Shown here one piece after another: positions 51,030-53,490 of a stretch of 64,000 nt of DNA (its first letter is position 1; each line of letters starts with the position of its first letter). The stretch lies in NCBI RefSeq assembly GCF_003334315.1, contig NZ_QOWR01000003.1; one strand, written 5' to 3'. This stretch comes from Escherichia coli (GTDB lineage Bacteria; Pseudomonadota; Gammaproteobacteria; Enterobacterales; Enterobacteriaceae). The notes under the pieces were generated by a model. That model was not told the DNA's origin and made no database searches. It worked only from the letters and a program-made list of their open reading frames with translations. The translations under genes and the position numbers were made by a program.

Positions 51030-51707
51030 TTACACCAGTAATTCCGCAGCCAGCCGTGCAATCAATACGTTAGAGAGCAAGACAGGAACATCGAGCTGTT
51101 TTTGCAGTAAATCGCGATGACGCTGGTTAAATCCCAAACAATCCAGCATGATGACATCAGCCCCTTTTGCCAGTAATTCTTTCCCGGCATCAATGATTTT
51201 TTGTTCTGAATCATGAATGGGGTTACCCAATGAAAATACCGGCGGTTTCTGCAAAATTTGCCATTTTTGCGCCTGAACGGTCAGCAACTCCTCAACCGGT
51301 ACGATAACCCCTACCTGATGATCTTCAACAATAGAGGAAACCAGCGGTGGCAATATCCGCGACGGCTCAAGAAAGATCGTATTACGCGCAGTCATACTAC
51401 TAATGTTTGCCGTACTCATTAATATAATGACGTCGTAGCCCTGATTATCGAGCACTTCAACCACACCTTGCAGGTCACGCTCTACTTTGCGACGCGAAAC
51501 ATGGGCCAGATGGTTGTCATTTAATAATGTGAGAATTGTGTCTTCGCCTGCTTCTGGCGCGTACTCCGCCATCACTTCTTCGCGGCTTAACTTCCCCAGC
51601 AGGCTATGATGGGAAATATTATCTTCGTCAATGTATTCTGTCAGGAGCGGCAAAACTTCCTGCATAGGTACAATGCCGATGGTTAGAATCGCCAACGACG
51701 CACTCAT
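51030..51707 (-). CDS. aroM: Protein AroM (function unknown)
   Basis: 225-aa ORF downstream of aroL-yaiA. Confidence 0.93.
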
Positions 51708-51964
51708 TGTTCTTCCACCTTACTTTTATTTCGTCGTTAATTACCGGGCAAGTGTTAAGCACCACTGCTGACACTTACTTGTGCTACAAATGACAAAAAG
51801 CGTAGCAGCAGACGTGCACGGCATAATGTAAAGATTCCAAATGATTCCAGTAATGGATTGTTATTGTTTAATATTCTAATTATTTGAAAAACATGAATTA
51901 TGAAAAATGTGACGCAGATCCCTTGTAGTGGCACTCAGAATCCCTTCCGAGCAGTCTGATGCGG

Positions 51965-52165
<201 letters not shown>

Positions 52166-52205
52166 TTATTTCACGGGATGAACGTTAAGTATAGGCGCTC
52201 GAAAA

Positions 52206-52730
52206 TCAACAATTGATCGTCTGTGCCAGGGCGCTGCGAATTTCAGAAATCACCTGGCTGGGTTCGTTTGTTGCGTCGATGATAATATGCGCAACTTCGC
52301 GATATAGCGCATCGCGTTCTTCCAGCACTTCCTGAACTTCTTCGCTCAGCGGTTTTCCCGTTAAGGTTGGCCGTAAATCTTCTTCCGGTGCAGCTTGCAG
52401 TCGGTTAACCAGGACTGATACTGGCGCACACAAATAAACCACGATCCCGTTATTTTGCATGAAGTGACGATTAAATTCCGTCAGAATAATGCCGCCGCCT
52501 GTAGCGATAACGGTGGATGGCGCAGTTACCGCTTCCAGCGCCGCCGTTTCTCTGGCGCGAAATCCCGCCCACTCTTCCCTTTCGACGATCTCCGCGACCG
52601 TCATATTGAGCTGTGATTGCAACCACTGATCGGTATCGACAAACCGACGGTTAAGCGAATCGGCAAGGGCCATTCCGACCGTTGTTTTACCACAGCCCCG
52701 AGGCCCGATCAGAAAAAGAGGTTGTGTCAT
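52206..52730 (-). CDS. aroL: Shikimate kinase 2
   Basis: 174-aa ORF with Walker [10 protein letters not shown]. Confidence 0.97.
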
Positions 52731-52789
52731 CGTGGGTTTTCCCCAATAGGTCGCAATGCGGCGAAAGCCGGTGTCATGAGAATAGCGAT

Positions 52790-52809
52790 CATACCATCAA
52801 ACTAGTACA
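52790..52809 (-). promoter_or_regulatory. Probable TrpR operator in the aroL promoter
   Basis: Minus strand reads GTACTAGTTTGATGGTATGAT, containing the GTACTAGT trp-operator half-site overlapping a TATGAT -10-like hexamer. Confidence 0.4.
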
Positions 52810-52817
52810 ATTTCGAT

Positions 52818-52835
52818 TGTAAAGGAAAAATTCCA
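52818..52835 (-). promoter_or_regulatory. Possible TyrR box (weak)
   Basis: TGTAAA-GGAAAA-ATTCCA; one half-site matches the TGTAAA-N6-TTTACA consensus. Confidence 0.4.
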
Positions 52836-52893
52836 CTTAAAGTGAAAATCTCAATACACCCCTTACTATACCAATAAATATTCAAGAATGAAG

Positions 52894-52911
52894 TGTAAAT
52901 AATAAATTACA
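52894..52911 (-). promoter_or_regulatory. TyrR box (strong)
   Basis: TGTAAA-TAATAA-ATTACA, 11 of 12 match to TGTAAA-N6-TTTACA; overlaps the yaiI stop codon. Confidence 0.55.
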
Positions 52912-53371
52912 TTTGGCCGCGACTACGTTGCACTTCCAGCCACCATTTCTCCAGCTCCGCAGCAAAGGCCTGGCGGTCACGTTGTGAAAGACTATCTGGT
53001 CCGCCGGTCTGGATCCCACTGGCACGTAAGGTATCCATAAAATCGCGCATCGTCAGGCGCTCACGAATGGTCGCTGGCGTGTAACGTTCGCCGCGCGGAT
53101 TAATCGCCGCAGCGCCTTTCTCGATGGCTTCAGCAGCCAAAGGTATATCTGCGGTGATCACCAAATCGCCCGCTTCACACTGCCGGACAATTTCGTTATC
53201 GGCAACGTCGAAACCTGCCGCGACGCGCAGCGTACGAATAAATCGCGATGGCGGCACGCGTAAACTCTGGTTTGCTACCAGTACCAGCGGCATCTGCATA
53301 CGTTCCGCCGCGCGATACAAAATCTCTTTAATTACATTGGGACACGCGTCGGCATCCACCCAAATTGTCAT
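52907..53371 (-). CDS. yaiI: UPF0178-family protein YaiI (function unknown)
   Basis: 154-codon product [35 protein letters not shown]... from ATG (rc of 53369-53371); ORF track extension rejected. Confidence 0.88.
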
Positions 53372-53490
53372 AAAGTCATCCTTTGTTGGGTAATCCTCTA
53401 TTGTGTCGCGCTTTTGCCTTCCGGCATAGTTCTGTTTATGCTTCTGCCAGCGATTATCAAAACAATGAATTTCACGGCAGGAGTGAGGCA

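Follow-up and report, generated by a model that had tools for sequence, protein, structure and literature searches.

The window, the 64,000-nucleotide stretch of DNA analysed here, comes from a strain of E. coli other than K-12, and over the aroL control region it is identical to ATCC 8739 and others. It carries aroL on its minus strand, with yaiI and the divergently oriented proC upstream and yaiA and then aroM downstream. A 351-bp query over this region found a match in each of the 5426 complete E. coli genomes, where the annotation reads yaiI on one side and aroL on the other. Among 5429 hits for the yaiI-aroL junction, two fall on plasmid-labelled records. The features of the locus are collected in Table 1.

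Table 1. Features of the aroL control region in window coordinates, with the conservation of each element among 26 aligned loci
Feature	Position	Strand	Sequence	Basis or remark	Mean majority-base frequency (26 loci)
yaiI coding sequence, 154 aa	53371..52907	minus		ORF list; ends here in the RefSeq annotation of ATCC 8739	
yaiI stop codon	52907..52909	minus	TAA	inside the distal box in this strain	
Distal strong TyrR box	52894..52911		window strand TGTAAATAATAAATTACA, gene strand TGTAATTTATTATTTACA	consensus match, PWM and conservation	0.96; half-sites 0.99
P1 extended -10 element	52865..52873	minus	TGgTATAGT	conserved; 8 nt upstream of mapped start	0.96; 8/9 positions invariant (TGnTATAGT)
P1 transcription start	52857	minus	G	three published MG1655 maps	
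Degenerate middle TyrR box, candidate	52841..52858		gene strand TGTATTGAGATTTTCACT	spacing and literature	0.65
Proximal TyrR box	52818..52835		window strand TGTAAAGGAAAAATTCCA, gene strand TGGAATTTTTCCTTTACA	2 mismatches; PWM; conservation	0.87; half-sites 0.92
P2 -35-like hexamer	52811..52816	minus	TCGAAA	promoter scan; weakly conserved	
TrpR operator-like site	52791..52808		gene strand GTACTAGTTTGATGGTAT (52808..52791)	TrpR-PWM, conservation	0.96
P2 extended -10 element	52788..52796	minus	TGgTATGAT	promoter scan; 8/9 positions invariant	0.98 (TGnTATGAT)
P2 transcription start cluster	52780..52782	minus		Cappable-seq and SMRT-Cappable-seq; ~50-52 nt upstream of ATG	
aroL coding sequence, shikimate kinase II, 174 aa	52206..52730	minus		ORF list and genome search	
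Whole intergenic region					0.79
Spacers					0.59-0.75

The aroL control region is the long-studied TyrR/TrpR promoter-operator and is already known. Its K-12 counterpart, studied by Lawley and Pittard in 1994, Heatwole and Somerville in 1992 and DeFeyter et al. in 1986, occupies the same locus and has the same three boxes, TrpR site and P1. From the distal box up to the aroL ATG, the window and MG1655 differ at a single base, which belongs to the proximal TyrR box and lies in its N6 spacer. No indels intervene, and a window position converts to MG1655 (U00096.3) as 406405 + (52730 - window position). Table S1 of Kim 2012 (PMC3415461) gives aroL at 405629, from which we took a 776-bp offset between NC_000913.2 and U00096.3.

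We scored the window against the TyrR box consensus TGTAAA-N6-TTTACA, an 18-bp palindrome, as quoted from RegulonDB in PMC4325908. An earlier note on this DNA had described a near-perfect TyrR box at 52894-52911, and this description held. The distal box has one mismatch and is the sole match with no more than one mismatch in the 64-kb window, where 0.11 are expected from shuffles. We also used a TyrR matrix made from eight boxes upstream of aroP, aroG, tyrR, tyrP, aroF and mtr in MG1655, which is independent of aroL. The distal box scored 20.6 bits and ranked first of 63,983 positions, and 100 of 100 shuffles had a lower maximum (best 18.5). Its predicted identity as a TyrR site holds on sequence alone.

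The distal box, presumably 'box 3' in the K-12 literature numbering, spans -54..-37 relative to the P1 start and abuts the -35 position. It lies 164-181 bp from the aroL ATG, and the distance given earlier was correct. We rejected the idea that the box is anomalously far from its gene. A box-to-ATG distance of 165-181 bp is unremarkable because the main start at 52857 leaves a leader of 127 nt.

The second, weaker TyrR box claimed at 52818-52835 is also present, with two mismatches. We take it to be 'box 1' of the K-12 literature. Four such matches occur in the window against 2.24 expected, and singly the box is not significant. Its matrix score of 12.6 bits ranks third in the window, and 1.16 sites per shuffle reach that score. 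A trp half-site-like sequence beside a TATGAT hexamer had likewise been noticed, and both were found on the minus strand, GTACTAGT at 52808..52801 (one copy in the window against 0.5 expected) and TATGAT at 52793..52788. With a TrpR matrix trained on the trp, aroH, trpR and mtr operators, the 18-bp site that contains this half-site was the window's top match, with 14.6 bits. That score is attained in 28% of shuffles, though, and the training operators score 21-25 bits. Compared with the TrpR palindrome GTACTAGTTAACTAGTAC, which has two ACTAG-type half-sites, the left half matches at 9/9 positions and the right half at 4/9. With more than three mismatches overall, the site does not appear in a search for the full trp operator consensus at up to three mismatches, which returned no match in the window. 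Judged by sequence, the TrpR match is no more than suggestive.

A matrix scan was the check that the earlier note had proposed. The distal box exceeds all shuffles, whereas the proximal box and the TrpR-like site do not, and the latter two therefore need other support.

A third TyrR box, at 52841-52858, is kept as a candidate, and we take it to be 'box 2' of the K-12 literature. It covers -1..+17 of P1, spanning the start site, and its centre lies 23 bp from that of the proximal box. With four mismatches, a TyrR score of 5.7 bits and rank 50, it does not qualify as a TyrR box on sequence and is not significant. Its conservation among 26 loci is below the intergenic mean; the candidate is not conserved. 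Sequence and conservation do not support the assignment, and the candidate is retained on the literature and its spacing. In Pittard's work the essential positions of a TyrR box are reportedly a G at position 2 and a C at position 17, 14 bp apart, and both are present in all three aroL boxes. All three also lie on or next to the core of the mapped promoter P1, in front of an aromatic amino acid gene.

The main promoter, P1, was missed by the earlier note, as were the degenerate third box and the role of TATGAT as the -10 element of a second start. P1 is without a good -35 hexamer. Its start corresponds to MG1655 406278 (U00096.3) or 405502 (U00096.2). Kim 2012 (PMC3415461, Table S1) lists this start for aroL at NC_000913.2 405502 on the plus strand, with 136 reads and a 5' UTR of 127 nt, and the flank given there ends ...TATAGTAAGGGGTG. 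Cappable-seq reports the same position, 405502, with an RRS of 4.74. SMRT-Cappable-seq places the start at 406277, on a transcript covering aroL-yaiA-aroM.

Published 5' ends also define a second start, P2. Cappable-seq in M9-glucose reports 405579 (U00096.2), which is window 52780, with an RRS of 7.35 and an enrichment of 3.87, and SMRT-Cappable-seq reports 406353 (NC_000913.3) on a transcript covering aroL-yaiA. Kim 2012 (PMC3415461) lists P1 in Table S1 but no P2 start, and papers that take promoter names from databases give a single aroLp. A promoter scan recovered TCGAAA-17-TATGAT (9/12 matches, with TG ahead of the -10) directly upstream of the second start. Both P1 and P2 fit the sigma-70 extended -10 type, in which TGn and a TATAAT-like hexamer lie 7-8 nt before the mapped 5'-triphosphate end. 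TATGAT is thus the -10 element of a second, weaker-documented aroL start, which appears in high-throughput data. Kim 2012 (PMC3415461) further lists a very weak antisense start (4 reads) at window 52819 on the plus strand (NC_000913.2 405540, minus there). It is assigned in that table to proC with a 672-nt UTR, and a TACAAT at 52806-52811 on the plus strand overlaps the TrpR site.

The two promoters give the downstream elements different positions. Counted from P1, the proximal box occupies +23..+40; counted from P2, it occupies -55..-38, about the same offset as that of the distal box at P1. The TrpR-like site falls at +50..+67 relative to P1 and at -28..-11 relative to P2, and at P2 it takes in the TG of the extended -10 element together with three nucleotides at the start of the TATGAT hexamer. 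The TrpR site might be mainly a classical overlapping operator of P2 instead of a helper of TyrR at P1, with the proximal box serving P2. Cap-specific 5' ends in two data sets and a P2 score above that of P1 speak for this arrangement, although both data sets come from related cap-capture methods of the same research team, and Kim 2012 found P1 alone. The scan-recovered promoter, its nearly invariant extended -10 element, the fixed 57 bp to the ATG and the matching box offsets are also as expected of a P2 operator, whereas database-derived promoter names give one aroLp. Knock-down of trpR had no measurable effect on aroL (2025 preprint), which also counts against it. We regard an operator role confined mainly to P2 as possible but doubtful.

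We next consider conservation. In a genome scan, AroL identified the locus in 8 Escherichia and 17 Citrobacter species or lineages. We aligned 24 of those loci with the window and MG1655, giving 26 sequences, and measured conservation as the mean majority-base frequency (Table 1). Conserved footprints across these 26 Escherichia/Citrobacter genomes coincide with the two good TyrR boxes, with the TrpR site and with the -10 elements of P1 and P2. Spacing is similarly constrained. The gap between the distal box and the P1 -10 is 23 bp in 26/26 loci, the distance from the P2 -10 to the ATG is 57 bp in 25/26, and the centres of the distal and proximal boxes are 74-76 bp apart. The GTACTAG of the TrpR-like site is kept in 25/26 taxa. 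The exception is C. sedlakii, where GTACTAG is lost and TGGTATGAT retained, and the TrpR half-site and TGGTATGAT are therefore separable. The conservation pattern agrees with the results that Lawley and Pittard reportedly obtained in 1994, in which boxes 1 and 3 are essential, box 2 is dispensable, and the TrpR and TyrR sites are needed on the same helical face.

These data also bear on the idea that an AT-rich region has produced the motifs by chance. The intergenic region is 64% A+T (48% for the window), and neither the 2-mismatch TyrR box nor the TrpR match is significant singly. However, the distal box scores above every shuffle, the elements are better conserved than the sequence around them and keep fixed distances, and they sit at a known regulon member. 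The weaker elements are beyond chance because they are clustered within 120 bp and conserved in 26 loci. On the conservation pattern and the matrix rank we rejected chance motifs, to which we give a negligible probability.

Arrangements in other lineages differ. Klebsiella has an extra gene, KPN_00331, between yaiI and aroL, and in K. pneumoniae (NC_009648 371238, Kim 2012 Table S1) TGCAATGATAAGTTTACA lies at -20..-3 of the aroL start, a TyrR-like box over the -10. Winslowiella iniecta has a single TGTAAATCTGTGGTTACA upstream of aroL. Because the Klebsiella and Winslowiella arrangements differ, the three-site layout seems limited to the Escherichia/Citrobacter lineages sampled.

The aroL leader contains two small hairpins on the minus strand, both of them conserved. 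One, TCGC-N6-GCGA at 52751-52764, contains a single covarying pair that is U-A in Escherichia and C-G in Citrobacter. The Shine-Dalgarno purines form part of the other, a GGGG/CCC stem at 52733-52745. The fold of the whole leader is ordinary (z = -1.7), and an Rfam search of 51500-53600 at E<=1 returned no RNA family.

The dual tyrosine/tryptophan repression layout proposed for aroL in the earlier note is supported: papers state repression by TyrR and TrpR, and the motifs are conserved. Published work has TyrR repressing aroLM and TrpR repressing aroL, and a review describes tyrosine-mediated repression of aroLM and aroF-tyrA through a TyrR hexamer that blocks RNA polymerase. In RegPrecise-based work on Enterobacteriales, 10 genomes have TyrR sites at aroL and 4 have TrpR sites there. 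aroL is listed among TyrR genomic-SELEX targets, and in a Y. pestis tyrR mutant aroL is up 4.7-fold. The primary aroL study is Lawley and Pittard 1994 (J Bacteriol 176:6921). In a 2025 preprint combining CRISPRi with a reporter, knock-down of tyrR raises aroL and knock-down of trpR is without effect, and its authors conclude that tyrR alone regulates aroL.

We put at roughly 90% the probability that the region is the classical promoter-operator of aroL (aroL-yaiA-aroM), in which P1 is bracketed by TyrR boxes and TrpR provides an additional input. The motifs, their places relative to the mapped starts and their selective conservation at constant spacing are results of this analysis; protein occupancy, hexamer looping and TrpR/TyrR synergy are inferred or taken from the literature. 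Transcription would start mainly at P1, at 52857, and TyrR dimers would occupy the two good boxes that bracket it. In the presence of tyrosine and ATP, TyrR would assemble into a hexamer and contact every box, with the ~76 bp in between looped or wrapped and RNA polymerase kept off P1, a mechanism taken from the literature. Tryptophan-bound TrpR would add the tryptophan input from a half-perfect operator that adjoins the proximal box on its downstream side. Classical genetics reported TrpR repression of aroL only when TyrR was present. This dependence better fits a helper role for TrpR than an operator role at P2.

The TrpR contribution is the weakest link in the explanation. The site is half-degenerate. 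The TrpR-like sequence might have little or no regulatory role in vivo, and its conservation might reflect constraints on P2 or the leader. Only the left half-site is good, the score falls 6-10 bits below the four established operators and is reached by 28% of shuffles, and the 2025 CRISPRi/reporter data credit tyrR alone. Yet GTACTAGT lies in the P2 spacer, which is normally unconstrained, and is kept in 25/26 loci, while C. sedlakii lost it and kept TGGTATGAT. Published titles, for their part, name TrpR as a regulator of aroL, and RegPrecise predicts TrpR sites there in 4 genomes. We consider a TrpR-like site with little or no regulatory role to be quite improbable.

Tentatively, the region may also be organised as two tandem extended -10 promoters, each with a good TyrR box centred at about -46 and touching the -35 position. 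In this arrangement TrpR would occlude P2 directly and TyrR would act at both promoters. If true, this would account for the position of the TrpR site, ~58 bp beyond the classical start, and it might also account for TrpR effects that differ among assays weighting P1 and P2 differently.

The classical reading also places aroL beside other operators of the two regulators. Like aroL, the aroF-tyrA operator has several boxes around a sigma-70 promoter, through which hexameric TyrR represses in response to tyrosine. Its boxes, TGTAAATTTATCTATACA and TGTAAATAAAAATGTACG, are strong and similar in quality to those of aroL. In contrast to aroL, aroF-tyrA is without TrpR input, and the layout of its boxes relative to the promoter differs: two adjacent boxes lie over the -35 and one lies upstream. 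The mtr promoter is the other one subject to both TyrR and TrpR, and like aroL it combines a strong TyrR box (TGTAAAATAATATATACA) with a TrpR operator (GTACTCGTGTACTGGTAC) in a single control region. There, however, TyrR is an activator and TrpR dominates repression, whereas at aroL the dominant repressor is TyrR. When compared with the trpEDCBA, aroH and trpR operators, the left half of the aroL site, GTACTAGTT, is identical to the trp operator half-site, and the right half is degenerate (GGTAT against AGTAC in trp-type operators; 14.6 against 21-25 bits). Those operators overlap their promoters, and the aroL TrpR-like site likewise overlaps the P2 -10.

The earlier note also had the distal box overlapping the yaiI stop codon. 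This is true of this strain (TAA, 52909..52907) but not as a general trait. In K-12, yaiI closes with GGC TAA, and a single A separates this stop from the TGTAAT of the box, so that the stop lies 1 nt upstream of the box. The K-12 stop position, window 52915..52913, reads CAA here instead of TAA, and the stop lies 6 nt further downstream, within the box. The reading frame continues through CAA and ATG to the TAA within TGTAAT, making YaiI longer by two residues (Gln-Met). Besides the stop-codon change, four further substitutions relative to MG1655 occur at the yaiI 3' end, none an indel.

In K-12 and most Escherichia the yaiI stop is a TAA or TGA 1 nt upstream of the box. Across other taxa it lies 1-9 nt upstream, and reading into the box occurs only in the window allele and in Escherichia sp. 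MOD1-EC7003. By exact 57-mer, the window allele is present in 976/5426 complete E. coli genomes (~18%) and the K-12 allele in 3851/5426. The overlap is a minority polymorphism, and the next stop codon in frame happens to be one within the box. A conserved functional coupling of stop and box was rejected, as the overlap is confined to this allele and the one Escherichia sp.

SMRT-Cappable-seq contains full-length transcripts that run from upstream of yaiI (MG1655 TSS 405741) through 52731-53394 into aroL-yaiA and as far as b0392. We found no terminator-like site between yaiI and aroL. Because yaiI-side transcripts traverse the control region without such a site, bound TyrR or TrpR could act as a roadblock to transcription reading through from yaiI. 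At the other end of aroL, Cappable-seq reports a minus-strand start at ~52181 (U00096.2 406178), in the 49-bp gap between aroL and yaiA, with a score beginning 719. This start exceeds each of the two aroL starts ~100-fold in strength, which means that most transcription of yaiA is independent of aroL.

The scan has recovered a textbook operator, and its significance goes little beyond confirming the annotation. Two points may interest specialists: a cap-verified second start of aroL is overlapped by the TrpR site, and a common allele places the yaiI stop codon inside a TyrR box.
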